DNA from: Spirochaetia bacterium
GTDB taxonomy: Bacteria; Spirochaetota; Spirochaetia; UBA9216
NCBI GenBank assembly: GCA_963675665.1
Contig: OY776510.1
Location: 4,032,001 to 4,096,000 of the forward strand
Length of the DNA stretch: 64,000 nucleotides
Direction: 5' to 3'
Shown: positions 6,986 to 20,119 of the stretch, one piece after another
How positions within the stretch are numbered: position 1 is the first letter of the stretch
Layout of the letters: every line of letters begins with the position of its first letter
Position numbers and translations under genes: made by a program
Notes under the pieces: generated by a model
Databases searched by the model: none
The model's input: the letters and a program-made list of their open reading frames with translations, nothing else
Told to the model about the DNA's origin: nothing

Positions 6986-8338
6986 TCAAATCCATTCCAG
7001 AAATCTGCAGATTATGCCGTTATTTTCAACAGCTTCAATTTTTGCTCTGCAGATAGTTCCATCTTTATTAATTATATCACATACTGTCGATTTTAAATAA
7101 TTTTCACTTGTTCCGTTCCATTTTTCACCGTTTTCGTCTTCTATAAGAACATCAACATCTCGACCAATCCATCCTGATGCATATTTCAGGTAATATTCGC
7201 CTGACAGCCGCCGCAATTCTCCCGTCCGCTGTCCTGATATACGTTCTGGAACCGGGTTTTTCATTTTCTCCGCAAGAGTTCCGGGCCTTGGTGAAAACGG
7301 AAAAACATGCAGATGGGCAAATTCGCATTCTTCAACCAGACTGAGGGTAAGCCCGTAATCCTCATCTGTTTCACCGGGAAAACCTGCAATAACATCCGCG
7401 GCCAGAAACGGATCGTCTTTTACGTTTCTCAGTGTTTTTACTGCATCTATTATCTTTGCACGATTGTTATGCCGCCGCATAAGCGAAAGGATCCTGTCGC
7501 TTCCGGATTGAACCGGTATATGAAAATGCGGGCACACTGCCGGACTGCTTACTGCAAGCGCCATTCTGTCGTCTATTGTTTCCGGTTCAAGAGACGAGAG
7601 TCTTATTCTTGCCGCCGGATGACCTCCGGGACCGTCAGTTCCGGCAATTACAGCAAGTTCGGTCAGAATACGGCTGAAATCATATCCTTGTGAATTATAA
7701 GAAGTTAAATTGACACCCGTCAGCACAATTTCCCGGTATCCTTTATCGAGCAAACCGCTGAACTGCCTTAAAACCTCTTCGGGCGGCAGGCTCACCCCGC
7801 GTCCCCTTGCGATTGTAACCCTGCAGTAAGCACAGCTGTTGTCGCATCCGTCCTGAATTTTCAGGAACGCCCGGGTATGATAATTGAAATCGACAGATTC
7901 ATACCAGAACCTGTCAGGATCCTGCAGCCCCTGGGAGGAGCCCCTCCCGAAGAAACCGCGCACAGCCCCGATTAAGCCGTCCCGGTCATCCTGCAGGTCC
8001 TTTAAAAACACGGGAAGCCTGCTAATCTCATCTTTTCTGTCATGCGGGACAACGACAACATTGCCGCCGAGGGAAACTTCTGCTTCATCAAGCTGAGCAT
8101 AGCAGCCGGTAACAAGAACAACCGAGCCGGGATGTTCGGTTGATAGTTTCCGGATCATCCTGCGGGCTTTCTGTTCAGCTTTCGAGGTTACCGTGCATGT
8201 GTTTATTATATAAAGATCAGCATCGCTGCGTACATCCTCAATAAAAAAACCCCGGCTGTCGAAGGACGATGCCAGGGCTTCACTTTCACATTGATTCAGC
8301 TTGCAGCCTAAGGTATATACAGCCGCTCTGAAATCCAT
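6986..8338 (-). CDS. mtaB: tRNA t6A37 methylthiotransferase
   Basis: TLGCKLNQCES, INTCTVT, radical-SAM KIQDGCDNSCAYC. Confidence 0.93.
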   Translation of the reverse strand: MDFRAAVYTLGCKLNQCESEALASSFDSRGFFIEDVRSDADLYIINTCTVTSKAEQKARRMIRKLSTEHPGSVVLVTGCYAQLDEAEVSLGGNVVVVPHDRKDEISRLPVFLKDLQDDRDGLIGAVRGFFGRGSSQGLQDPDRFWYESVDFNYHTRAFLKIQDGCDNSCAYCRVTIARGRGVSLPPEEVLRQFSGLLDKGYREIVLTGVNLTSYNSQGYDFSRILTELAVIAGTDGPGGHPAARIRLSSLEPETIDDRMALAVSSPAVCPHFHIPVQSGSDRILSLMRRHNNRAKIIDAVKTLRNVKDDPFLAADVIAGFPGETDEDYGLTLSLVEECEFAHLHVFPFSPRPGTLAEKMKNPVPERISGQRTGELRRLSGEYYLKYASGWIGRDVDVLIEDENGEKWNGTSENYLKSTVCDIINKDGTICRAKIEAVENNGIICRFLEWI

Positions 8339-8970
8339 TACCCGGCACCCAGCTTTTTCCTGACCCGGTCACGGCCCCTGACGGCTTCGGTATATGAAGA
8401 ATTAAGCTCTAATGATTTATTATATGCTTCCAGTGAATATTTCCAGTCTTCTGCCATCTCTCGTGCATAGCCCAGTCTTGACCACCACCTTGCTGAATTC
8501 GGAAAATGGTAAACCGCCGTTGTGAATGCGATATCGGCATGATTGTATTCACCGAGCCTGATGTAAATCTCACCCATAAAGTAATATGCAAGTTCGATTC
8601 TGTCGCCGGTCGGGGCAAGTACCGTATATTCTTCAAAATAATCGAGCGCTTCGAGATTTTTCCCAAGATAATAATATGCTTCCGCCGCTATCTCAATTAC
8701 GCGCGTGTCCCGGCGGGATATTTCAAGACCGGAAAGGCTTGAGTCCAACGCTTTCTGATAGTCCTCCAGTTTGATATAACTCCACCCCAGAACTACATAC
8801 GAATCCATATTCCTGGGCATCCGTTCAATTTCGGCCAGACAAATCTCAATAGCTTTATTGAAATCACCCTTTCTGTATTCGACCAGGGCATCTTCACGTT
8901 CCTGCGGGAACACTGTTGCGACTGCTGAAATGCTGAAGAACAGCAGAAAAACAATAATTTTATTCTTCAT
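8338..8970 (-). CDS. exported TPR protein
   Basis: Signal peptide plus about 4-5 TPR motifs. Confidence 0.85.
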   Translation of the reverse strand: MKNKIIVFLLFFSISAVATVFPQEREDALVEYRKGDFNKAIEICLAEIERMPRNMDSYVVLGWSYIKLEDYQKALDSSLSGLEISRRDTRVIEIAAEAYYYLGKNLEALDYFEEYTVLAPTGDRIELAYYFMGEIYIRLGEYNHADIAFTTAVYHFPNSARWWSRLGYAREMAEDWKYSLEAYNKSLELNSSYTEAVRGRDRVRKKLGAG

Positions 8971-9352
8971 TCTTCATTTCCTCATCTTTTGTTACTTCAC
9001 GCGGAGATTTCATGGTGCAGATCCCGTTAAAAGAACAGCCGCTTTCCATGATTATGTCGGGTGCCGTAATGTCTCCGTCAACATGCCCGCACGAAAATAT
9101 CTCGACTCTGTCGTAGGCGAAAATATTACCGTGCACAGTACCCATTACCGAAACAATATTCGCTTCCACCCTTGCATCTACAACCGCGCTTTCGGCGACA
9201 TAAAAATCACCTTCCGCTTTGACGTTTCCCTTTATGTGTCCTTTTATCATAAGAGATTTGTCGAATCCCAGATTCCCGGTAAAATCGATATCCTCGTTAA
9301 GTATTGTATCTATTTCAGCTTCATCTGTTATCTGTATCTGAATATCGCTCAT
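8960..9352 (-). CDS. bactofilin (polymer-forming cytoskeletal protein)
   Basis: Beta-helix repeats (TIL..FTGNL..IKG.IKG..V.G.V.GNI..V.GDI..G..F.G). Confidence 0.9.
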   Translation of the reverse strand: MSDIQIQITDEAEIDTILNEDIDFTGNLGFDKSLMIKGHIKGNVKAEGDFYVAESAVVDARVEANIVSVMGTVHGNIFAYDRVEIFSCGHVDGDITAPDIIMESGCSFNGICTMKSPREVTKDEEMKNEE

Positions 9353-9402
9353 ATCATCTTAATGTACTTAGCCTGCCCTCAGCTGTCAAGCGTAAACTGC
9401 AA

Positions 9403-10119
9403 TCAGAACAGCGACATTGTTTCATCAAGAGCTTTCTTCAGCCGGATACGCATTTCTCCGGTATGCGGATTGAATTTCTGCAGGTCGTGAAACAGCTGAA
9501 CAGGGTCGTTGCAGGTCTGCTCAACTATCTCCTGAAGCTTCCGGTACCCGAGAGTCGCTATGGCGCTGTCTTTCAGATTCAGCTCATTCAGCACCCTTCC
9601 GATAAAGTGGGTTATACCCTGGGTAAATGCGGCTTCAAGATCATGCTCATCCGGAGTCATTTTATGTATTTCCAAACCCATCCGTCTGAATACATCATTC
9701 CAGAGGGGCCCGCAACCGTTAATATCGCGGACTGTGTGAAATACCAGCGGAAGGCCTTTGATTCCGTTGCGGCCCGAATCAGGACCGAACATCGGGTGCG
9801 TTGCAATAATACCGCAGGTTTCCGGAAGATACTTGTTCATCAGCCGCGCCGGCTCGACCTTTACCGAACAGGTGTCGATTACCACAGCGTCCTGCTTAAG
9901 TACGGGCGCAATACGTTGAAGCACTTCTTCTACAGCGCTTATTGCGCAGCAAAGAAAGACTGTATCATAACCGGTCAGCTGCTCTTCACTTTCAATACGC
10001 CCTACTCCTGCAGGTAATTCCCTGCGGCTCCTGCTGTAACCGGCAACATCAAACCGGTCAGCCAGCAGAGATGCCCAAAAGGATCCGAAACGTCCCATAC
10101 CGTATACTGCTATCTTCAT
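9403..10119 (-). CDS. tyrA: prephenate/arogenate dehydrogenase
   Basis: GMGRFG Rossmann motif, DTCSVK, THPMFGP, EHD, TQGITH. Confidence 0.92.
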   Translation of the reverse strand: MKIAVYGMGRFGSFWASLLADRFDVAGYSRSRRELPAGVGRIESEEQLTGYDTVFLCCAISAVEEVLQRIAPVLKQDAVVIDTCSVKVEPARLMNKYLPETCGIIATHPMFGPDSGRNGIKGLPLVFHTVRDINGCGPLWNDVFRRMGLEIHKMTPDEHDLEAAFTQGITHFIGRVLNELNLKDSAIATLGYRKLQEIVEQTCNDPVQLFHDLQKFNPHTGEMRIRLKKALDETMSLF

Positions 10120-11333: not shown

Positions 11334-11393
11334 AAAAAGACCGCAAAAAACGGTCTTTAACAGTGAAAAAAGCTGCCGGAAGGCAGCTTTTTT
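11333..11393. terminator. two tandem terminator hairpins between convergent pta and the sugar operon
   Basis: AAAGACCG..CGGTCTTT and AAAAAGCTGCC-GGAA-GGCAGCTTTTTT. Confidence 0.8.
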
Positions 11394-12310
11394 TATTCCG
11401 TGTACAATTTGCCTGATATAAGGTAAAGATCTTTCCCGGGAGTTTTTCCTGAAAAGTATTCTGCAATCAGGGTAGTCAGCTCCTGCGCCATTGTATCAAA
11501 ATCCTGCTCGATTGTTCCGACAAATGGACCTTTCTTGCCTATTTCGGCCTTTGCAAAGTCGGTACCGTCTATTCCTACAACCTTAATCTCGGTTCTACCG
11601 GCGGCCTCAAGCGCCTGAACTGTTCCGTAAGCAGGTTCATCCCACCCGGCCCAGATGCCTGCAATAGAACCTTTACTGTTGGCGGTTATCAGGTCTTCGG
11701 CTATCTTCCTTGCATTATCAACCGGTCCGGGCACATCGATATGGAATTTATTAATTACCTTAATGCCGGGATAGCTGTCGAATACTTCCTGGGCACCGAC
11801 GGCCCTTGCGCGCACACCCGGATGCGGGTCATGAGTAAACATTATAACATTACCCTTTCCGCTTATTGTCTCGGCAAGCAGTTCTGCGGTTTTCTTTCCA
11901 AGATCAGCATTATCTGATGTGATATTAAGCACAACCCCGTCAGCCAGTCCGGCATCAAGACCGAAAACCGGGATCCCAGCTTCCTTTGCGGCGGCAAGGC
12001 CCTTGGTCATCTGGGCAGGGTCTCCCATTCCCAGAACAATCGCATCAACCTTCTGGGCGACTGCATCTTCAATTCGTGAGACCAGCATGCCGAAATCACC
12101 GGCAGTATCGGAAACATTTACCTTCCAGCCTTCGGCTGAGGCATCCTTCCTGAACTGCTCGATTACATAAGCTGTGGTTGCATTAGCCATATAGGGGGTG
12201 ACAACCGCTACTGTTTTCGAGTCTGCGGCAGCTTCTGATGTTCCTCCTGCAACTGCCGCCATTGCAGCGATCAGCAACACAAGTACTGAAACAATGATTC
12301 GTTTAATCAT
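11393..12310 (-). CDS. sugar/polyol ABC transporter substrate-binding protein (RbsB-like)
   Basis: Signal peptide AGG..E; KVDAIVL, GIPVFGLD, SDN..G, VVGIDG motifs. Confidence 0.92.
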   Translation of the reverse strand: MIKRIIVSVLVLLIAAMAAVAGGTSEAAADSKTVAVVTPYMANATTAYVIEQFRKDASAEGWKVNVSDTAGDFGMLVSRIEDAVAQKVDAIVLGMGDPAQMTKGLAAAKEAGIPVFGLDAGLADGVVLNITSDNADLGKKTAELLAETISGKGNVIMFTHDPHPGVRARAVGAQEVFDSYPGIKVINKFHIDVPGPVDNARKIAEDLITANSKGSIAGIWAGWDEPAYGTVQALEAAGRTEIKVVGIDGTDFAKAEIGKKGPFVGTIEQDFDTMAQELTTLIAEYFSGKTPGKDLYLISGKLYTE

Positions 12311-12374
12311 TTCTTCCTCCGTTATTTTGATAATATAAAAGACAATTTCAAACCTGACGTGTTATGAAACAGCC

Positions 12375-13880
12375 TTATAAACCCTTAATATCAGAAAAGG
12401 ATTCTTTTAAAACAGGATACAGTTTCCTGAAAACAGGACCGGCTTTTCTGTAGAACTCAGTCATGTCATTATCGGGAAAAACAACCGTTTCATCATTTCT
12501 AAAAGAACCGGGCAGTTCAAAGGAATCAAACCAGCCGCTTGCCTTTCCGGCAATAAGGAGGTTGCCTGTAAGACCTGCTTCTGAAGTTGCGGGCGAGAGT
12601 ATTACGCGGCAGCCGGTAACCGAAGCGATTATTTCTGTCCAGAGACTGTTGGATGCGCCCCCACCTGAAATCCTGATTTCCAGGCGTTCATGACTGCCCT
12701 CTGTAATCGTCCCGAGAATTGAATCAAGCGAATAAGCCACCCCCTCAAGAACAGCCCTGAACATTGCGCCTTTGCCCGTGCCCCTGTTCAGTCCGATAAA
12801 CGCCCCGCGGGCATCAGGGTCTCTGAACGGCGAACGCTCGCCGGACAGGTAAGGCAGGTAAAAAACCCCGTTGCTGCCTGGTTTGACGGCAGAAGCTTCT
12901 TCCGTAAGGGTATGGAAATCAGCTGACGTGCCGGTTGCGCCCGATAATCCGGAGAGTATCCCGGCGGCCCATTCCGTGTTTCCGCCGGCGGTTATCATTG
13001 AACCTATATTTATCACTTTTGAAGGATCCGGATGCTTCAAATTGAATATTCCTGTTGCAGGGTCAACAGTACGGTCACCTGTTGTTGTAATCCAGCCTGA
13101 AGTGCCAAGATAACATGAAAGAACACCGGCAACCCCGGAGCCCGCACCTATAGTCGAAGAGCCTGCGTCGCCGGCCCCGTGTAACACAGTCAGACCGGCC
13201 GGAAGTCCGGTAAGTCCTGAAGCTTCGGCCGAAACTTTTCCTGCCGGTTCATCCGCCCCCTGCAGAACAGGAAACCTTTCTGTGGAAATACCTATAAAAT
13301 CAGCAAGCCCGCTGTTCCATGAGTTTTTATCAAAATCCAGCAGCTGGGTTGTTGATGCATTGGTATAATCCGTTACAAAAGCCCCGGTAAGCTTCCAGCA
13401 GATATAATCATGCGCACCCATCAGAAAAAATGTTTCGTCGTCAGCAAGCTCCGGCCGGTTTTTTCTGAGCCACAGGAATTTTGAAGGAAGCCCCGCTGCA
13501 TCACTCAGGTTTGCCGAAGAGGTTATAATACGTTTTTCACCAAACTCACGGTGCAGAAACTTCAGCTCATCAGCAGCACGTGTATCTGAATACAATATGG
13601 CGTTTCCGATCGGGTGGCCGTCTTTGATGCAGACAAGGTCCTGCATTTGCCCGCTGAGAACAATAAGCTCAAAATCATTACGCTCAGATTGATTCAACAG
13701 CTCTTTTGTTCCTCTGTAGAAAGCGTTCCACCAGTGTTCAGGATCCTGCTCGGCTCTTGTTCCGTCGGTTATAACGGGGTAGTTTTCCGAAGCTGAGGCG
13801 AGAACTTCCCCGCCTTCAGTAATTATAGCCAGCTTTACAGCGGTAGTTCCGATATCGGCCGACAGAATAACACTTTTCAT
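12375..13880 (-). CDS. FGGY-family carbohydrate kinase (xylulokinase-like)
   Basis: DIGTTAVK, AEQDP..WW, SGQMQ, GAGD, LGTSG, LPYLSGERSP, SGGGA. Confidence 0.92.
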   Translation of the reverse strand: MKSVILSADIGTTAVKLAIITEGGEVLASASENYPVITDGTRAEQDPEHWWNAFYRGTKELLNQSERNDFELIVLSGQMQDLVCIKDGHPIGNAILYSDTRAADELKFLHREFGEKRIITSSANLSDAAGLPSKFLWLRKNRPELADDETFFLMGAHDYICWKLTGAFVTDYTNASTTQLLDFDKNSWNSGLADFIGISTERFPVLQGADEPAGKVSAEASGLTGLPAGLTVLHGAGDAGSSTIGAGSGVAGVLSCYLGTSGWITTTGDRTVDPATGIFNLKHPDPSKVINIGSMITAGGNTEWAAGILSGLSGATGTSADFHTLTEEASAVKPGSNGVFYLPYLSGERSPFRDPDARGAFIGLNRGTGKGAMFRAVLEGVAYSLDSILGTITEGSHERLEIRISGGGASNSLWTEIIASVTGCRVILSPATSEAGLTGNLLIAGKASGWFDSFELPGSFRNDETVVFPDNDMTEFYRKAGPVFRKLYPVLKESFSDIKGL

Positions 13881-14665
13881 GCAACCTCCAGGAACTGCCT
13901 GAACCGGGACAGATAACCCGAGATTTTGTTATCTCCGCCGATGACTGCTTTCAGAAAGGATGTGCCGACTATAACGGCGTCAGCGCCGGCCTTCTCTGCT
14001 TCAACCGCATCAGCCGGAGAGTTAATACCGAAACCGACGCCGACGGGAAGGCGTTCGGGCGCTGCCAGCCGCTTTGCCATATCAAGCCGTCTGAGAAACG
14101 ATTCTCCGACGGAGAATTGTCCCCCGGTCGGGCCTTCCGACGACTGAAGATAAAGAAAACCGCTTGTAAGGCCGATTATCTCTTTCATCTCTTTTTCAGA
14201 AAGTCCCGTTACCGCAAAACTGACAACCTCTACTCCTGTTTTCGAAGCCTCAACAAAAAGCTTTCTCCGGTTTTCCATGGTGATATCAGGAACAAGGACC
14301 GCACTGATTCCGCATTCCGCACAGTCGGAAACCAGTTCCCTTATTCCGTACTGAATAAGGGTATGCTCATAAAGCATCGTAATACCGTTAAGCCCGCAGG
14401 CGGTTATAATCTTTCCGGAATCAATGTTGAATGCCGAAATACTTCTGTCCGCTCTGGTCAGTTTTGAAAGTGTGCCTTTAATCAGTTCACCGTCAAGAAA
14501 GGGTGTAGCCGTCGGCATTCCGACCTCAATAAACTTCAGTCCGCCTTCGGCCAGTTGCCGGACTATACGGAGAAATCCGTCGTTGTCCGGAAAAAGCGCC
14601 GGAAGATACCCGATAAGAGGCGCCCTTTTTCGTTTTTCAATAAAATTGAATATTTCGTTTTTCAT
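13877..14665 (-). CDS. divergent stand-alone tryptophan synthase alpha-like TIM barrel
   Basis: IEVGMP (Glu49 equivalent), FLDG (Asp60 equivalent), VLVPD, GFLYL, GPTG, VGFGI, ADAVIVG. Confidence 0.85.
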   Translation of the reverse strand: MKNEIFNFIEKRKRAPLIGYLPALFPDNDGFLRIVRQLAEGGLKFIEVGMPTATPFLDGELIKGTLSKLTRADRSISAFNIDSGKIITACGLNGITMLYEHTLIQYGIRELVSDCAECGISAVLVPDITMENRRKLFVEASKTGVEVVSFAVTGLSEKEMKEIIGLTSGFLYLQSSEGPTGGQFSVGESFLRRLDMAKRLAAPERLPVGVGFGINSPADAVEAEKAGADAVIVGTSFLKAVIGGDNKISGYLSRFRQFLEVA

Positions 14666-15636
14666 CAGCCCTTCTTCTTGGCAAGACTTGAAACAAGGAC
14701 TGCCAGTATTATTATCATGCCGGTAAGGATCGATTGGACATAGGTGTTTATACCCAGAATATTAAGCCCGTTGCCCATCACCCCCATTATAAAAACCCCA
14801 AGCAGGGTCCCCCATACATTGGCCTCGCCTTCCCTGAATGCCGTCATTCCTAGAAAAACTGCTGCCGCTGCATTTAGCATAAACGGCGCGCCGGCCTGGG
14901 GATGCGCTGAATACAGGCGGCTTGTAAGCACAATTCCGCCGAGAGCAGCAAAAAATCCGGATATGCCGAAGGCCGCCATGCGAATCCTTCTTGTATTTAT
15001 TCCGGAAAGAAATGAAGCTTCCTCGTTGCCGCCAATCGCATAAAGCCTGCGCCCGTAAACCGTCTGTTCAACAAGGGTATAAATAATTACAAGTACCAGG
15101 AGCATTATCAAAACGGACACCGGAATAAATCCCAGATTCCCCTGCCCGATAAACCTGAAATTCTCCGGCAGTCCGAAAATTGTCGTCCCCTTCGACAAAA
15201 GAAGAGCGGCGCCCCCGTAGGCAGTCATGGTTGCCAGCGTACCTACAAAGGCCGACAGCCCCCCGTAAGCGATAAGCAGGCCATTCAACAGCCCAGCCGC
15301 TGTTCCGATTCCAAGAGCACAGATTATGCTCACAGCGGTGCCGGCGCCGGCCTGCATCATCATTGCGGCAATTATTCCGACCAGGCTTGATACCGCCCCT
15401 ACCGACAGGTCAAAATCACCCGTAATCATTACCACAGTCACGCCGGAAGCAACTATTGAAAGGGTTGCGACCTGTTCGATAATATTTCTCAGGTTTCTGG
15501 CCGACGGAAAAACATCCGGCCTGATCAGCGTAAAGATGATCATCAGCAGAATGAAACAAAGAAGTGTGCCCCAGGTTCTTATAAGTCTCACCGGGTTCAG
15601 TTTTTCAGTTCGGTATTTATTTTCTGTTAAATCCAT
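14665..15636 (-). CDS. sugar ABC transporter permease (RbsC-like)
   Basis: GDFDLSVG, FVGTL, YGRRLYAIGGNEEASFLSGI EAA motif. Confidence 0.93.
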   Translation of the reverse strand: MDLTENKYRTEKLNPVRLIRTWGTLLCFILLMIIFTLIRPDVFPSARNLRNIIEQVATLSIVASGVTVVMITGDFDLSVGAVSSLVGIIAAMMMQAGAGTAVSIICALGIGTAAGLLNGLLIAYGGLSAFVGTLATMTAYGGAALLLSKGTTIFGLPENFRFIGQGNLGFIPVSVLIMLLVLVIIYTLVEQTVYGRRLYAIGGNEEASFLSGINTRRIRMAAFGISGFFAALGGIVLTSRLYSAHPQAGAPFMLNAAAAVFLGMTAFREGEANVWGTLLGVFIMGVMGNGLNILGINTYVQSILTGMIIILAVLVSSLAKKKG

Positions 15637-15638
15637 TT

Positions 15639-17135
15639 TCAGTTTTTCCTTCCATAGCAAAAATTAAGATACTGCTCCTGATTTATTCCCGAGTTTTTTT
15701 CAACAAAAGTCTGTTTGCCTTCGAAAAGAAAAAGTATTCTGTCGCAAAGACCTAAAATCTCATTAAAATCGGAACTTACAAGCAGTACAGCCGCACCTGC
15801 GTCGGCTATTTTCCTGATTAGTGTATAAATCTCGAAGCGTGCTCCGACATCGACGCCTTTGGACGGCTCATCAAGCAGCAGTAGCCTGGGCGGGTTGAGA
15901 ATCGTTTTAGCAAAAACAACTTTCTGCTGGTTACCCCCCGAGAGAGTTCCGGCATGGTTTCTGTAATCGGCTGTTTTAAGTTTAACATCCTTCCCCACGG
16001 ACTCTGCGGCCTGCCTGAGCTGCTTGTGTCTCAAAAACCCAAGCGAGGCAAGAGAATCAAGATACATAAGGGAAATATTGTCATAGATTGCCCTGTTCAG
16101 AACAAGCCCCTGTTTACGTCTTTCCTCGGGCACAAGTACAACGCCCTGCTTTACCGCCTGTTTGGGAGAGGAAGGCTTGTATTCACTGCCGGAAAGCTGC
16201 ATACTGCCGTTTTCAAGCTTTCTGGCCCCGAAGATAGTCTCAAGCAGCTCAGTCCGGCCGGCCCCGACAAGACCGCCTATCCCCAGGATTTCACCGCTTT
16301 TCACATCGAAATTGATATTATTGATATCGGAATTTCGGCAATTTTCCATTCTGAAGACAGTATTCCCCCGTACAGACTTTTTTTCCGGAAAAACCGACCC
16401 GAGATCACGGCCTATCATCAGTGATATCAGTTTGTCTTTATCGAGTTCCGATGCCGGACTTTCTTTAACAACCTGCCCGTCTCTCATCACCGTTACGCTG
16501 TCACAGATTCTCAGGACATCATCAAGATTGTGCGACACATAGACTATGGTCCGCCCCTGCTGCTTCAGTACGCTTATGACCTCAAACAGCTTCTCCTTCT
16601 CGATATCAGTCAAAGCAGTTGCCGGTTCATCCATAAAATAAATGGAACCGTCTACCGCAAACCCCCTGGCTACTGCAATCATTGCCCTTTCAACAGCCGA
16701 CAGATAGGATACAGGCCTGTTTATCGGGATTTTCATATTCAGCCTGTCAAGGATTTCAACTGTTCTTTTTCTCAGCCCTCTCCAGTTGATGAGCCTGCCG
16801 GGTTTTTCAGGGTAATCATGACCGAGAAATATATTTTCACATGCATTGAAATAATCAATCAGGTTCAGTTCCTGGTGAATAAAACAAAGCCCGGCATCTG
16901 AAGAATCTCTTGCTGTTTTTATATCGATCTTTTTACCGTTAACAAGAATGTCGCCTGAATCAGGTTTAACCACACCTGCAAGAGATTTTATCAAAGTTGA
17001 TTTCCCCGCTCCGTTCTCTCCTACCAGACCGTGTACGGTACCCTTTTCAAAATCGAGATCCACGCCTTTGAGTGCATGGACACCCGCGTAGGATTTACTC
17101 AGACCTTTTACGGTCAGTGCTGAAGTCTGCTTCAT
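15639..17135 (-). CDS. sugar ABC transporter ATPase (RbsA-like, double NBD)
   Basis: GENGAGKST, MDEPAT, LSGGNQQK, LDEPSKGVDVGA. Confidence 0.95.
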   Translation of the reverse strand: MKQTSALTVKGLSKSYAGVHALKGVDLDFEKGTVHGLVGENGAGKSTLIKSLAGVVKPDSGDILVNGKKIDIKTARDSSDAGLCFIHQELNLIDYFNACENIFLGHDYPEKPGRLINWRGLRKRTVEILDRLNMKIPINRPVSYLSAVERAMIAVARGFAVDGSIYFMDEPATALTDIEKEKLFEVISVLKQQGRTIVYVSHNLDDVLRICDSVTVMRDGQVVKESPASELDKDKLISLMIGRDLGSVFPEKKSVRGNTVFRMENCRNSDINNINFDVKSGEILGIGGLVGAGRTELLETIFGARKLENGSMQLSGSEYKPSSPKQAVKQGVVLVPEERRKQGLVLNRAIYDNISLMYLDSLASLGFLRHKQLRQAAESVGKDVKLKTADYRNHAGTLSGGNQQKVVFAKTILNPPRLLLLDEPSKGVDVGARFEIYTLIRKIADAGAAVLLVSSDFNEILGLCDRILFLFEGKQTFVEKNSGINQEQYLNFCYGRKN

Positions 17136-17936
17136 CTACTCAAGGTCCTCCCAGAGTCCGGCATCGGAAAACCTGTCCGTCTCATTGCTTTCATCTTTCC
17201 GCCTGATTATATATTTAAATTTATTGTTCCTGCCGTATCTTGCCGATGCAATAAAAACAGATTGCCCCGGAAGAAATGCTTCATCAAAAATCACAACCCT
17301 GCCGTCAAGACTTAGGCTGATTCTTTGCGACAGGAAAACCGGCTCTCCCGAATTCACTTCAAGCAATCCGGATTCCGGTTCGGCAATAACAGCCGGAATA
17401 ACTATCTCGCGACCTTTTGTAAGCATCAGTCCCGCTTTTTCCGACATAATCTGATACAGTGAAGATTCCCGGCTGTAAGTTTCAATTATCTCTTTATATT
17501 CATCGGGAATATATGATCGCTGAAGTATTACCGGTTTTTCCCCGATTTTTCTTAATCTTGTCAACACTGAAAATTTTTCAACATTGTCTTTAAAAATACG
17601 TTTAACCTTGCTGTTTTTAATGCCGTAATCTTTTTGAATGATTTCCGTACTGATTTTCATGGATTTTGAATCCATCTCATTCTGAAAACCCTGCAGTGAA
17701 ATATTCTCCGAATGCATTCTTTGCGCCGACACAAAAGTCCCCGTACCGTGAACAACCGAGATCAGCCCTTCTTCTTCAAGCACAGACAAAGCCTGTCTTA
17801 TTGTCATTACCGATGTTTTAAAGCTCACAGAGAGCTCTTTCTGACTGGGAAGCAATGTTCCGTTCTGCAGAGCCCCGTCTATAATTCTGTTTTTCAGCAC
17901 CCGGGCAATTTCCAGGTATCTTAACTGTTTAGCCAT
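17136..17936 (-). CDS. GntR/HutC-subfamily regulator with UTRA domain
   Basis: LPSQKELS..FKTSVMTIRQAL..L..EG....HGTGTFV wHTH; C-terminal UTRA (SLYQ..). Confidence 0.92.
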   Translation of the reverse strand: MAKQLRYLEIARVLKNRIIDGALQNGTLLPSQKELSVSFKTSVMTIRQALSVLEEEGLISVVHGTGTFVSAQRMHSENISLQGFQNEMDSKSMKISTEIIQKDYGIKNSKVKRIFKDNVEKFSVLTRLRKIGEKPVILQRSYIPDEYKEIIETYSRESSLYQIMSEKAGLMLTKGREIVIPAVIAEPESGLLEVNSGEPVFLSQRISLSLDGRVVIFDEAFLPGQSVFIASARYGRNNKFKYIIRRKDESNETDRFSDAGLWEDLE

Positions 17937-17954
17937 TCTCTACTCTTATAGTTA

Positions 17955-18004
17955 TATAGACTTCTAGATGTCTGTATTTTAAATATATATTGACAATCTG
18001 TCAA
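17955..18004 (-). promoter_or_regulatory. sigma70 promoter and palindromic operator of the GntR operon
   Basis: TTGACA(18004-17999)-17 bp-TAAAAT(17981-17976); palindrome TATAGACTTCT/AGATGTCTGTA at 17955-17976 over the predicted +1. Confidence 0.7.
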
Positions 18005-18195: not shown

Positions 18196-18214
18196 TAGTA
18201 CAAATTATTGCACC

Positions 18215-18388
18215 GGTAATAGAGGCGCGGTATTCAATCAGTAGTATGCAGAGGAAGCGGGTTCCGAAGAAGCATTATGAAAGGTGAAACCGCCGAAGGG
18301 TTTTTTCAGCCGCTGGAAGAATTCTGGGATTAAAAGAGAATACTTTTAATACTGTCAGTGTTTTCATAACGCTGGGGCGCTATCTACC
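18215..18388 (+). ncRNA. lysine riboswitch (L-box)
   Basis: Ordered core motifs AGAGGCGC..AGTA..GAAAGG..CGCCGAA..CTGGG..GAATA..ACTGTC..GGGCGCT, directly upstream of dapB. Confidence 0.93.
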
Positions 18389-18453
18389 ATAACCTTTCAG
18401 AGTTGCAGCATCCTGTAGCCTCTTGATTCCGGGCAAAGAATAAGGGGTAAATA

Positions 18454-19212
18454 TTGGTCAGGGTAATTTTAATAGGCTCAAACGGCAGAATGGGACAGGT
18501 ACTCACTTCTCTTATTGATGCAAGAGAAGGGATGGCAGTAACCGCCGGTATTGATCTAAATACAAAATCAGAAAACTATCCGGTTTTTAACAGCCTTCAG
18601 GACTTCAATGGTAAAGCAGATGTAATTATTGATTTCTCACACCCGGATACTATCAGTGGTTATCTACCGGAAGCCGTAAAAAGAAAACTCCCTGTTGTAA
18701 TTGCAACAACCGGTCTTTCAGATAAAATAATTACGATGATCAATGAAGCTTCAGAAAAGATCCCTGTATTCATATCAGCAAATATGTCTCTTGGAATCAA
18801 TCTTCTGCAGCAGCTTATAAGCAAAGCAGCCATGGTACTCGGAAATGAGTTCGAGGTTGAAATAGTTGAAAAACATCATAAAATGAAAAAGGATTCTCCG
18901 AGCGGAACAGCGTTAATGCTGGCTGACTCGATCAATAAAGTTAAAGGAAACAAGTTCAGAAAGGTTTGTGGACGCGAAGGCACTGATTGCCTTCGTCAGT
19001 CTGATGAGATTGGCATCCATGCGGTGCGCGGAGGCACAATAGTGGGGGAACATGATGTATATTTTACCGGTACCGACGAGGTCATTAAAATCGGGCATAT
19101 TGCATATTCCAGAAATGTGTTCGCAACAGGCGCTATAGCCGCCGCTGAGTTTTTATACAAATGCAAACCCGGCATCTATGACATGCAGGATCTTATCAGC
19201 AGCTCGGTCTGA
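18454..19212 (+). CDS. dapB: 4-hydroxy-tetrahydrodipicolinate reductase
   Basis: GSNGRMG, IDFS, ATTG, ANMSLG, EKHHKMKKDSPSGTA, RGG.IVGEH. Confidence 0.96.
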   Translation: MVRVILIGSNGRMGQVLTSLIDAREGMAVTAGIDLNTKSENYPVFNSLQDFNGKADVIIDFSHPDTISGYLPEAVKRKLPVVIATTGLSDKIITMINEASEKIPVFISANMSLGINLLQQLISKAAMVLGNEFEVEIVEKHHKMKKDSPSGTALMLADSINKVKGNKFRKVCGREGTDCLRQSDEIGIHAVRGGTIVGEHDVYFTGTDEVIKIGHIAYSRNVFATGAIAAAEFLYKCKPGIYDMQDLISSSV

Positions 19213-19240
19213 CCAAAACCGACTATTCAGGAGGAAATTA

Positions 19241-20119
19241 ATGAAACTTGAAGGTGTCTTTACAGCACTGGTAACCCCGTTCAATGATGAAGGGGCTGTC
19301 GATGAAAAATGTTTGCGCGATCTTGTGGATTTTCAGATAGCCAAAGGAATTTCAGGCCTTGTTCCGGTTGGGACCACCGGTGAAAGCCCGACTCTCAATC
19401 ACCAGGAACACGACAAGGTTATTGAGACTGTAATTGAACAGACAGATAAACGTGTTCCTGTAATAGCCGGTACAGGCTCCAATTCAACTGCAGAAGCTAT
19501 CAGACTTACCAAACACGCAAAAGAAGCGGGCGCGGATCTTAGTCTTCAGGTTGCCCCTTACTACAACAAACCGTCCCAGGAAGGTTTTTACAGGCATTTC
19601 ATGGCAATAGCTGATGCTATCGACATGCCCATGGTCGTTTACAATATCCCTGGACGAAGCGGCAAAAATATTGAGAACAGCACCATGCTGAAGCTTGCCG
19701 ATCACCCGAATATAGTTGCTGTCAAGGAAGCCAGCGGCAGCATCCCGCAGGTTATGGATCTCTGCCTGAAAAAACCCGATGATTTCACGATTTTGTCCGG
19801 CGACGATAATCTGGGACTGCCTATAATCGCCTGCGGAGGACGGGGAATTATCTCTGTTGCTTCAAACATCATACCTGAAGAAATGGAAGAACTTGTAAGA
19901 AGCGCCAATGCCGGAAATTTTGAAAAAGCCAGGGAAATGCATTATCAGCTTCTGCCCTTCTTCAAGGCTCTTTTCATAGATACAAACCCTGTGCCGGTTA
20001 AATACGGATGCTTTCTGAAAGGAATGATGAAAGAAGTATACAGGCTTCCGCTTTGCGGAATGAGTGATGAATATAAAAAAGATTTCGAAGAAATTATGAA
20101 GAAAACCGGACTTCTTTAG
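19241..20119 (+). CDS. dapA: 4-hydroxy-tetrahydrodipicolinate synthase
   Basis: TALVTPF, GTTGES, PYYNKP, YNIPGR, VKEASG, LSGDD; AGGAGG RBS before ATG 19241. Confidence 0.97.
   Translation: MKLEGVFTALVTPFNDEGAVDEKCLRDLVDFQIAKGISGLVPVGTTGESPTLNHQEHDKVIETVIEQTDKRVPVIAGTGSNSTAEAIRLTKHAKEAGADLSLQVAPYYNKPSQEGFYRHFMAIADAIDMPMVVYNIPGRSGKNIENSTMLKLADHPNIVAVKEASGSIPQVMDLCLKKPDDFTILSGDDNLGLPIIACGGRGIISVASNIIPEEMEELVRSANAGNFEKAREMHYQLLPFFKALFIDTNPVPVKYGCFLKGMMKEVYRLPLCGMSDEYKKDFEEIMKKTGLL

Follow-up and report, generated by a model that had tools for sequence, protein, structure and literature searches.

What does a member of the tryptophan synthase alpha-subunit (TrpA) family do in an operon that otherwise seems equipped for the uptake and phosphorylation of a sugar? 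The question is raised by a stretch of 64,000 nucleotides from the genome of a Spirochaetia bacterium (assembly GCA_963675665.1, contig OY776510.1, positions 4,032,001 to 4,096,000; we refer to the whole of this stretch as the window), in which a minus-strand run of six open reading frames (ORFs) at 17936-11393 encodes, in this order, a GntR/UTRA regulator, the ATPase and the permease of a CUT2-type ATP-binding cassette (ABC) transporter, a TrpA-like protein, an FGGY kinase and a periplasmic binding protein. An earlier note on this DNA had proposed that the operon serves to import a compound, to phosphorylate it and then to cleave one of its C-C bonds. As explained below, the conserved and coherent module of genes is solid, and the attractive chemistry that we infer for it, namely import, terminal phosphorylation and a TrpA-type retro-aldol cleavage that would yield glyceraldehyde-3-phosphate, has by our estimate about an even chance of being correct.

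A recurring unit set apart from tryptophan synthase

The reading frames and their Pfam assignments agree with the six co-oriented genes that the earlier note had listed, and the TrpA-like gene does overlap both of its neighbors, the permease gene through a TGATG at 14667-14663 with the single shared base 14665, and the kinase gene through an ATGA at 13880-13877. The simplest explanation for such an arrangement would be a spare alpha subunit of tryptophan synthase that has merely been placed in a sugar operon. In line with this, the product (P0001) passes the NCBIfam equivalog cut-off for trpA (TIGR00262, 116.4 bits versus 102.35), as well as that of the Pfam family, and its relatives are annotated as "tryptophan synthase subunit alpha" in their sources. 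We nevertheless consider this explanation scarcely credible, in view of the whereabouts of the canonical trp genes, the conservation of the unit, the fusion of two of its genes and the residues and tree position described in the next section.

The genome of origin (G000), which is represented by one contig of 5.15 Mb (C1, on which the window spans positions 4032001-4096000), carries a canonical trpA elsewhere (C1:5099463-5100194; PF00290 score 202.5 bits), and this gene overlaps trpB (C1:5100248; 548.3 bits) by 4 nucleotides, with trpC just upstream (C1:5102132), so the TrpA-like gene of the window is not the only trpA of this genome. A second trpB (528.8 bits) lies at C1:2904590-2905732, away from trpA. 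All of these genes are outside the window, within which we found neither trpB nor trpC, as the earlier note had stated, and trpB is missing from every operon locus retrieved. Canonical trpBA pairs also exist in the operon genomes G004, G015, G031, G052, G221, G392, G125 and G388. As a control, trpB was found alongside trpA in 142 of 160 TrpA loci, and 13 of the 18 loci without it are short (1.1-7.6 kb); the other five are L082, L107, L108, L105 and L106, which are described below.

Across 401 genomes of the class to which the source organism belongs, a profile built from the paralog has matches in 25 at E <=1e-30. Around the match in the 17 best of these genomes (at least 147.7 bits) the operon genes are found in the same order, as far as the contig reaches; the FGGY kinase gene is directly downstream of the TrpA-like gene in 15 of them and the other two end at a contig edge. 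The eight weaker matches (at most 122 bits) include seven with trpB directly alongside, which are canonical genes. Outside the class, the full operon occurs in a Chloroflexota metagenome-assembled genome (MAG; locus L082) and on the metagenome contig L108, and a third locus, the metagenome contig L107, carries it from the permease gene on, with the contig cut upstream. In the class to which the Chloroflexota MAG belongs, a strong TrpA-like match was obtained for one genome in 66, the MAG itself. Scans of genome and metagenome contig collections, for which generic peptide patterns were used, returned almost exclusively canonical TrpA, at no more than 34% identity. With 17 of 401 genomes of the class and three further loci showing one and the same gene order wherever the contig allows, the juxtaposition noticed in the window is not a matter of chance. 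The genes that flank the six-gene unit vary from genome to genome. The permease-kinase position of the TrpA-like gene is conserved across two phyla, which argues against a misplaced spare subunit.

Further evidence of cohesion comes from a gene fusion. In genome G392 the TrpA-like protein and the kinase are joined in a single ORF of 759 amino acids, and this fusion is inherited rather than a slip of assembly because a second 759-residue protein (P0205, from the protein library described below) has the same architecture at 70% identity. The binding protein tells a similar story of linkage: its ortholog is found in 15 of the 401 genomes of the class, every one of them an operon carrier, with no match between E 1e-118 and 1e-60. 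Among its relatives in a wider search, the best 120 of 497 clusters (E <=1e-60) are all at least 63% identical to it, and the few named sources of the clusters listed are Spirochaetales, Sphaerochaeta, Chloroflexota, Bellilinea and Candidatus Roseilinea. Across the loci, identity to the proteins of the window amounts to 63-81% for the binding protein (50% for the diverged copy of G107), 50-83% for the permease, 47-66% for the ATPase, 37-51% for the kinase, 33-54% for the regulator and 28-48% for the TrpA-like protein. The binding protein is thus the best-conserved member of the unit even across phyla and stands above the ABC ATPase, which is the reverse of the usual pattern in sugar ABC systems. 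A predicted complex of the kinase with the TrpA-like protein scored 0.00, with controls not folded, and was used neither for nor against the pairing.

Two departures from the standard arrangement were also observed. Genome G152 harbors a decayed operon (locus L213, G152:C70, about 7700-10100) that consists of TrpA-like residues 82-260, the kinase and residues 2-143 of the binding protein; no orthologs of the regulator, the ATPase or the permease were found at that locus. On the metagenome contigs L105 and L106, a TrpA-like relative (L106:8977-9771) is divergent from a GntR/UTRA regulator gene that heads genes for the IIB, IIC, IID and IIA components of a mannose-type phosphotransferase system (PTS), a true deoC (235 bits), a C45-family hydrolase and two aldo-keto reductases, and the contig stops just past the TrpA-like gene; here the PTS may replace the ABC importer and the kinase.

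Automatic annotation attaches the label "tryptophan synthase subunit alpha" to every member of the TrpA family, and the existence of a distinct, conserved subfamily in the loci examined here points to systematic misannotation. The linkage of this subfamily to an importer and a kinase, together with the kinase fusion in two organisms, points to a catabolic or salvage step that has not been described. The earlier note knew of no described pathway with this gene set, and our search of the full-text literature (subscription-only papers being outside its scope) bears this out: it yielded no such pathway, no TrpA paralog in a sugar-type operon, no use of indole-glycerol as a nutrient and no arylglycerol-phosphate lyase. 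To our knowledge, proteins of the TrpA family are known only as indole-3-glycerol phosphate (IGP) lyases of tryptophan biosynthesis and of plant indole and benzoxazinoid biosynthesis.

Active-site residues and the predicted reaction

A profile of the TrpA-like clade finds solved TrpA chains with E values from 1e-30 to 1e-45; its best match in the PDB is an ancestral TrpA (5ey5_A, E 1.2e-45) and its second the maize enzyme BX1 (1tjr, E 3.8e-40). Screening of a library of 1.84 billion proteins with the family profile gave 12,451 matches at E <=0.001, of which the best 150 were scored with hidden Markov models of the paralog and of canonical TrpA and called paralog-type at a difference of at least 30 bits. 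This identified 35 clear paralog-type proteins among those 150, with a gap in the score difference between -8 and -51 bits, and the operon-linked TrpA-like family is accordingly small, about 35 clusters at 50% identity. The library matches include other TrpA architectures, a tandem double TrpA of 630 amino acids (P0206), a NUDIX-TrpA fusion of 424 (P0268) and a PRA-isomerase-TrpA fusion of 473 (P0307), all with high canonical PF00290 scores. Residue conservation was read from the 35 library representatives and from a second set of 33 TrpA-like sequences taken from the loci, for comparison with 66 canonical TrpA sequences; the numbering is that of E. coli TrpA (K-12 gene) unless P0001 is named.

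The catalytic and phosphate-binding residues are kept. In P0001, E47, D58, T180, G211-F212-G213 and G234-T235 correspond to E49, D60, T183, G211-F212-G213 and G234-S235 of the E. coli protein. Glu49 is present in 35/35 library representatives and 33/33 locus sequences, and position 60 is acidic throughout (D in 28 and E in 7 of 35; D in 31 and E in 2 of 33). Tyr175, Thr183 of loop 6, Gly184, Gly211-Phe212-Gly213 and Gly234 are each found in 35/35, with similar figures for the locus set, and position 235 is T in 32 and S in 3 of 35; we take G184, G211-x-G213 and G234-S/T235 to form the glycine-rich phosphate cradle. Hydrophobic or aromatic residues are retained at positions 22, 100, 102, 127, 175 and 212, which presumably line the indole site. 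Ile64 (35/35) and Phe153 (34/35) are constant among the library representatives, and Phe102 is confined to sequences with Glu60 (5 of 5 and 2 of 2 in the two sets), as would be expected if the two positions had changed together in a functioning active site. There is no conserved set of metal ligands in the TrpA-like family, and the want of any invariant Lys or His makes it unlikely that these proteins act as Schiff-base or metal aldolases. Glu49 is described in PMC11574760 as both proton donor and acceptor, and Asp60 as the residue that takes the proton of indole N1.

Other residues are not kept. Phe54, Ser55, Asp56, Gln65, Pro96, Asn104 and Pro156 are near-invariant in canonical TrpA and unconserved in the TrpA-like family; Asp56, for example, is present in 63/66 canonical sequences versus 8/35 TrpA-like ones, and Asn104 in 62/66 canonical sequences, its place in the TrpA-like family being taken by E, S, A or others. 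The TrpB-facing residues that are conserved in canonical proteins (Asn104, the Phe107 region and Asp56 of loop 2, the last of which we assume to face TrpB) are thus not kept, and neither is adjacency to trpB. The location of Asn104 and Phe107 at the alpha/beta interface is described in PMC8187860. The TrpA-like family has also acquired a three-residue insertion after position 201 and a deletion around 247-253. Position 186 in loop 6 is Arg or Lys in 41/66 canonical sequences and Gln in 20/33 TrpA-like ones; Arg186 contacts the phosphate in maize TrpA, according to PMC11574760.

A quick maximum-likelihood tree of 99 sequences contains a branch (SH-aLRT 89) with the Spirochaetia operon copies, L107 and L108, the library proteins P0018 and P0019 and the PTS-linked copy on one side and 65 canonical TrpAs, that of G000 among them, on the other; L082 and one long canonical row are unplaced at the base. 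This is suggestive of TrpA-like proteins that group apart from canonical TrpA, in a tree that came from a short search with no mixture model and has its long branches flagged. In sequence, then, the operon protein belongs to the TrpA family, and its genomic context and unkept canonical residues indicate that it is not a subunit of tryptophan synthase.

The pathway that we propose would begin with the uptake of one specific hydroxylated compound by the dedicated binding protein and the CUT2 transporter, followed by phosphorylation of a terminal CH2OH group by the XylB-like kinase. The stand-alone TrpA paralog would then hold the phosphate in the usual beta7/beta8 cradle while its Glu49/Asp60 pair drives a TrpA-type retro-aldol cleavage, so that D-glyceraldehyde-3-phosphate could enter glycolysis and the leaving group would be one with an enamine- or enol-type electron sink of its own. 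The GntR/UTRA protein would repress the operon, by way of a conserved palindromic site near the promoter, until an intermediate builds up. The order of these steps, the type of reaction, the triose phosphate product and the nature of the substrate are all put forward on the strength of gene content and residues. The import-phosphorylate-cleave scheme of the earlier note fares well in so far as the conserved unit, the occurrence of the paralog beside a separate trpBA in the same genome, the catalytic and phosphate-binding residues and the coupling to a kinase go; its suggestions for the substrate (indole-3-glycerol, a heteroaryl polyol or a C-linked sugar) and the release of glyceraldehyde-3-phosphate did not gain support.

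An aromatic or heteroaromatic glycerol is the kind of substrate that we favor because the catalytic set is complete and the pocket positions have stayed hydrophobic or aromatic. Indole-3-glycerol, which would be the simplest such compound, is itself a guess that is rather unlikely to be right, and another C-linked aryl- or heteroaryl-glycerol deserves a similar share of belief. The larger side chains at position 153 and, in the Spirochaetia copies, at 26, 27 and 187, together with the newly acquired Gln and Arg residues, may point to a ring that is smaller or more polar than indole. Somewhat short of an even chance, in our judgment, is the further idea that the paralog founded a group of stand-alone (hetero)aryl-glycerol-phosphate lyases by which fermentative anaerobes (Spirochaetia and Chloroflexota) that import and phosphorylate a C-linked aromatic glycerol, with indole-, imidazole- and hydroxyphenyl-glycerol as candidates, clip off its three-carbon side chain as glyceraldehyde-3-phosphate with no need for oxygen or cofactors. 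Should this be true, it would show the tryptophan synthase alpha fold at work in catabolism for the first time and provide a new route of C-C cleavage beside an aromatic ring; and any TrpA-type cleavage by these proteins would represent a cofactor-free C-C lyase of new specificity, of relevance to those who engineer stand-alone TrpA enzymes.

Several observations weigh against the cleavage of an aryl-glycerol phosphate. Of all the genes in the unit, the TrpA-like one evolves fastest (28-48% identity, versus 63-81% for the binding protein, or 50% in G107). Polar residues have been gained near the active site, namely Gln177 (28/35), Gln186 and a new Arg196 (31/33), and the pocket therefore differs from that of canonical TrpA. 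The conserved loops of the binding protein are acidic and rich in Trp and His and give no pointer to an aromatic ligand, and a transporter of the monosaccharide (CUT2) type with a XylB-like kinase would be no less suited to an ordinary sugar or polyol than to an aryl-glycerol. The literature search turned up no natural nutrient source of indole-3-glycerol or a similar compound. The sole TrpA-family match in the Chloroflexota MAG (G401) is the operon copy, which says little because trpC lies within about 1 kb of the end of its contig, a TrpB-like fragment follows beyond that end, and trpBA may be hidden there. Finally, the retained Glu/Asp pair could equally well carry out the proton transfers of an isomerase or epimerase.

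This last point leads to an alternative in which the TrpA-like protein isomerizes or epimerizes a sugar phosphate. The cell would take up a rare sugar (a ketose, an aldose or one derived from a polyol), the XylB-like kinase would phosphorylate it, and a single acid/base step, with Glu47 and Asp58 of P0001 as proton shuttles, would turn it into an intermediate of the pentose-phosphate pathway or of glycolysis. The related phosphate-binding barrels TrpF, HisA and ribulose-phosphate epimerase carry out chemistry of this sort, the transporter and the kinase resemble those of ordinary sugar systems, the genome looks like that of a sugar specialist, and the polar residues gained near the active site would fit; moreover, two enzymes are enough only when one step reaches central metabolism, as that of an epimerase would. 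On the other hand, hydrophobic or aromatic residues are invariant or nearly so at positions 22, 100, 102, 127, 153, 175 and 212, which would be needless for a hydrophilic sugar phosphate, and the lack of a conserved set of metal ligands also speaks against it. We know of no isomerase or epimerase activity in any member of PF00290, and the full-text search found none. On balance we regard an isomerase or epimerase as unlikely.

If indole-3-glycerol were the substrate, the pathway might alternatively be one of salvage rather than catabolism, in which the compound leaks from neighboring cells, is phosphorylated to IGP and cleaved to indole, and a stand-alone TrpB or TrpB2 makes tryptophan from it. 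The retention of all IGP-lyase residues would allow this, as would the second trpB of G000, apart from trpA, and a TrpB2 in G401 (661.8 bits). By hand count, two trpB matches occur in 8/17 operon genomes versus about 52/384 others; we rejected this enrichment as evidence because operon-free genomes of the same families (f1, f6, f30 and f35) also have two copies, which makes the second trpB a family-level trait and the comparison one confounded by kinship. Canonical TrpAB, already present in these genomes, could use IGP made by the kinase, and no trp gene occurs within or beside the unit. Salvage of this kind seems to us quite improbable, and a retro-aldol cleavage that feeds glycolysis remains the explanation that we prefer.

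Operon layout, partner proteins and neighboring genes

The positions of the genes and of the predicted control sites are collected in Table 1. The promoter-like site precedes the GntR start by about 40 nucleotides, and most of the related loci compared have a TTGACA box at a similar distance upstream of this gene. The near-palindrome that lies at 17973-17958, between the promoter and the gene, reads AGACATCTAGAAGTCT, and TATAAGAG comes next. Related loci carry the motif, or a sequence close to it, upstream of GntR: TTATAGACATCTAGAAGACTATAAGAG in most relatives, TTATAGAGTTCTATAA in the Chloroflexota locus L082 and TTCTAGAATTCTAGAA in L108. This site is a plausible operator for an autoregulated repressor of the HutC type, to which the product of the first gene would bind. 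This product has the N-terminal GntR helix-turn-helix and C-terminal UTRA domains that define the GntR/HutC subfamily and reaches no NCBIfam equivalog cut-off. The base composition is unremarkable.

Table 1. Genes and predicted control sites of the operon, in coordinates of the window
Feature	Position	Strand	Evidence
GntR-family regulator with UTRA effector domain, HutC subfamily, 266 aa	17136-17936	-	Pfam PF00392 65 bits, PF07702 63 bits
CUT2-type ABC ATPase, RbsA-like, duplicated ATP-binding domains, 498 aa	15639-17135	-	two ABC_tran stretches (Pfam)
ABC permease, RbsC-like, 331 aa	14665-15660	-	BPD_transp_2 PF02653 128 bits; start codon uncertain (TTG)
TrpA paralog P0001, 262 aa	13877-14665	-	Trp_syntA PF00290 125.1 bits (cut-off 27)
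FGGY-family carbohydrate kinase, XylB-like paralog, 501 aa	12375-13880	-	FGGY_N and FGGY_C (Pfam)
Periplasmic solute-binding protein, N-terminal signal-like hydrophobic stretch, 305 aa	11393-12310	-	Peripla_BP_4 (Pfam)
Sigma-70-like promoter, TTGACA - 17 nt - TAAAAT	17976-18004	-	11/12 matches; top promoter-like site in a 7.5-kb scan
Putative GntR/HutC-type operator, between -10 box and GntR start	17943-17975	-	sequence reading and recurrence in related loci
Terminator-like hairpin, 9-bp stem and T-run, after the last gene	11336-11358	-	same scan as promoter

The transporter is closest to the ribose, xylose and arabinose (CUT2) systems in NCBIfam and falls under all equivalog cut-offs; for the ribose system the scores are 474.6 bits versus a cut-off of 745 for RbsA, 214 versus 398 for RbsC and 72 versus 337 for RbsB, so that it does not qualify as RbsABC. 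Only 4 of the 11 positions that we take to contact ribose in E. coli RbsB are kept in the binding protein (N13, D89, D215 and Q235). The closest solved relative of the binding protein is 4wt7 (104 bits), and within its own genome no paralog comes nearer to it than 31-33% identity; neither 4wt7, nor the Spirochaetota clusters in the Atlas, nor the paralogs of the same genome name a ligand. An Lsr (AI-2) system was considered and rejected, the LsrA, LsrC, LsrD and LsrK models scoring far below other sugar models and under threshold, with no match to LsrB.

The kinase belongs to the FGGY superfamily, has E. coli xylulokinase (2itm) as its closest solved relative and, at 316.6 bits on the NCBIfam XylB model TIGR01312 (cut-off 380.25), is not a xylulokinase equivalog; a true XylB (553.8 bits) is encoded elsewhere in G000. 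On contig C1 there are 30 matches to FGGY/XylB models at E <=1e-20, three of them above the XylB cut-off, and with 86 first-look candidates for genes of solute-binding-protein type this makes for an unusually large set of sugar kinases and CUT2 uptake systems. The source organism looks like a specialist in rare sugars or polyols. The compactness of the system under study, with one binding protein, one kinase, one lyase and a predicted operator, means that its substrate can be found by standard ligand screens and coupled assays.

Housekeeping genes of the opposite strand flank the operon: one neighbor is pta, and at the other end dapB-dapA are preceded by a lysine riboswitch. The riboswitch (RF00168, 105.9 bits) is at 18212-18390 (+), ahead of dapB and dapA at 18454-20119 (+), and is divergent from the operon. 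Beyond pta, at 9403-10119 (-) and separated from the operon, there is a short ORF of the prephenate dehydrogenase type (PDH_N, 238 aa), a gene of aromatic amino-acid biosynthesis.

Comparison with known systems

Canonical TrpA (PF00290/TIGR00262) and the TrpA-like protein share the catalytic Glu49/Asp60 pair, Thr183, Tyr175 and the phosphate-binding glycines. They differ in that the latter is encoded away from trpB, in a transporter-kinase operon, is placed separately in the tree and has Phe153, Gln177 and Arg196, with F54-S55-D56 of loop 2, N104, P96, P156 and Q65 unconserved. A closer parallel in one respect is offered by the stand-alone IGP lyases of plants (maize BX1 and IGL), which are TrpA paralogs independent of TrpB, as the operon protein would be. 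These enzymes function with no TrpB and release the cleaved product, and BX1 is a recent plant duplicate that is 63% identical to maize TrpA, by the account given in PMC11574760. BX1 serves the biosynthesis of defense compounds, whereas the proteins described here come from bacteria, share only about 24-32% identity with canonical TrpA and are tied to import and a kinase. The residues of the TrpA-like protein appear compatible with function as a stand-alone IGP lyase.

The PsuK/PsuG route of pseudouridine degradation resembles the proposed pathway in that a kinase acts first and is followed by cleavage of the C-C bond that joins a heteroaromatic ring to a phosphorylated polyol or sugar. PsuK is a PfkB kinase and PsuG has the Indigoidine_A fold, both families being unrelated to FGGY and TrpA. 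The likeness invites the idea that the operon itself degrades a C-nucleoside, the TrpA-like protein standing in for PsuG and cutting the C5-C1' bond of pseudouridine 5'-phosphate. On chemical grounds C5 of uracil is an enamine-type carbon like C3 of indole, and the transporter is RbsABC-like; a gene for a RihA-like pyrimidine nucleoside hydrolase is divergent from the operon regulator in L108 (L108:4164-5189, minus strand), and deoC lies beside the PTS-linked relative in L106. Each of these nucleoside-gene neighbors is a single occurrence, however, a separate canonical PsuG (at least 423 bits) was found in four of the five operon genomes that were searched for it, and we know of no FGGY kinase that acts on nucleosides. 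A role in pseudouridine degradation is accordingly very improbable.

The more general logic of import, phosphorylation by an FGGY kinase and one cleavage to a triose phosphate is that of FucK/FucA, RhaB/RhaD and the Lsr system (LsrK with LsrG and LsrF), the last of which also combines a CUT2 importer with an FGGY kinase. The enzymes that do the cutting in modules of the FucA, RhaD and Lsr type are class II or class I (Schiff-base) enzymes, whereas the corresponding position in the present unit is filled by a member of the TrpA family with neither a conserved Lys nor a set of metal ligands. By analogy, then, the operon resembles the known modules of FGGY kinase and aldolase, and Lsr, in its logic, and the enzyme family recruited to it would be new to that role.

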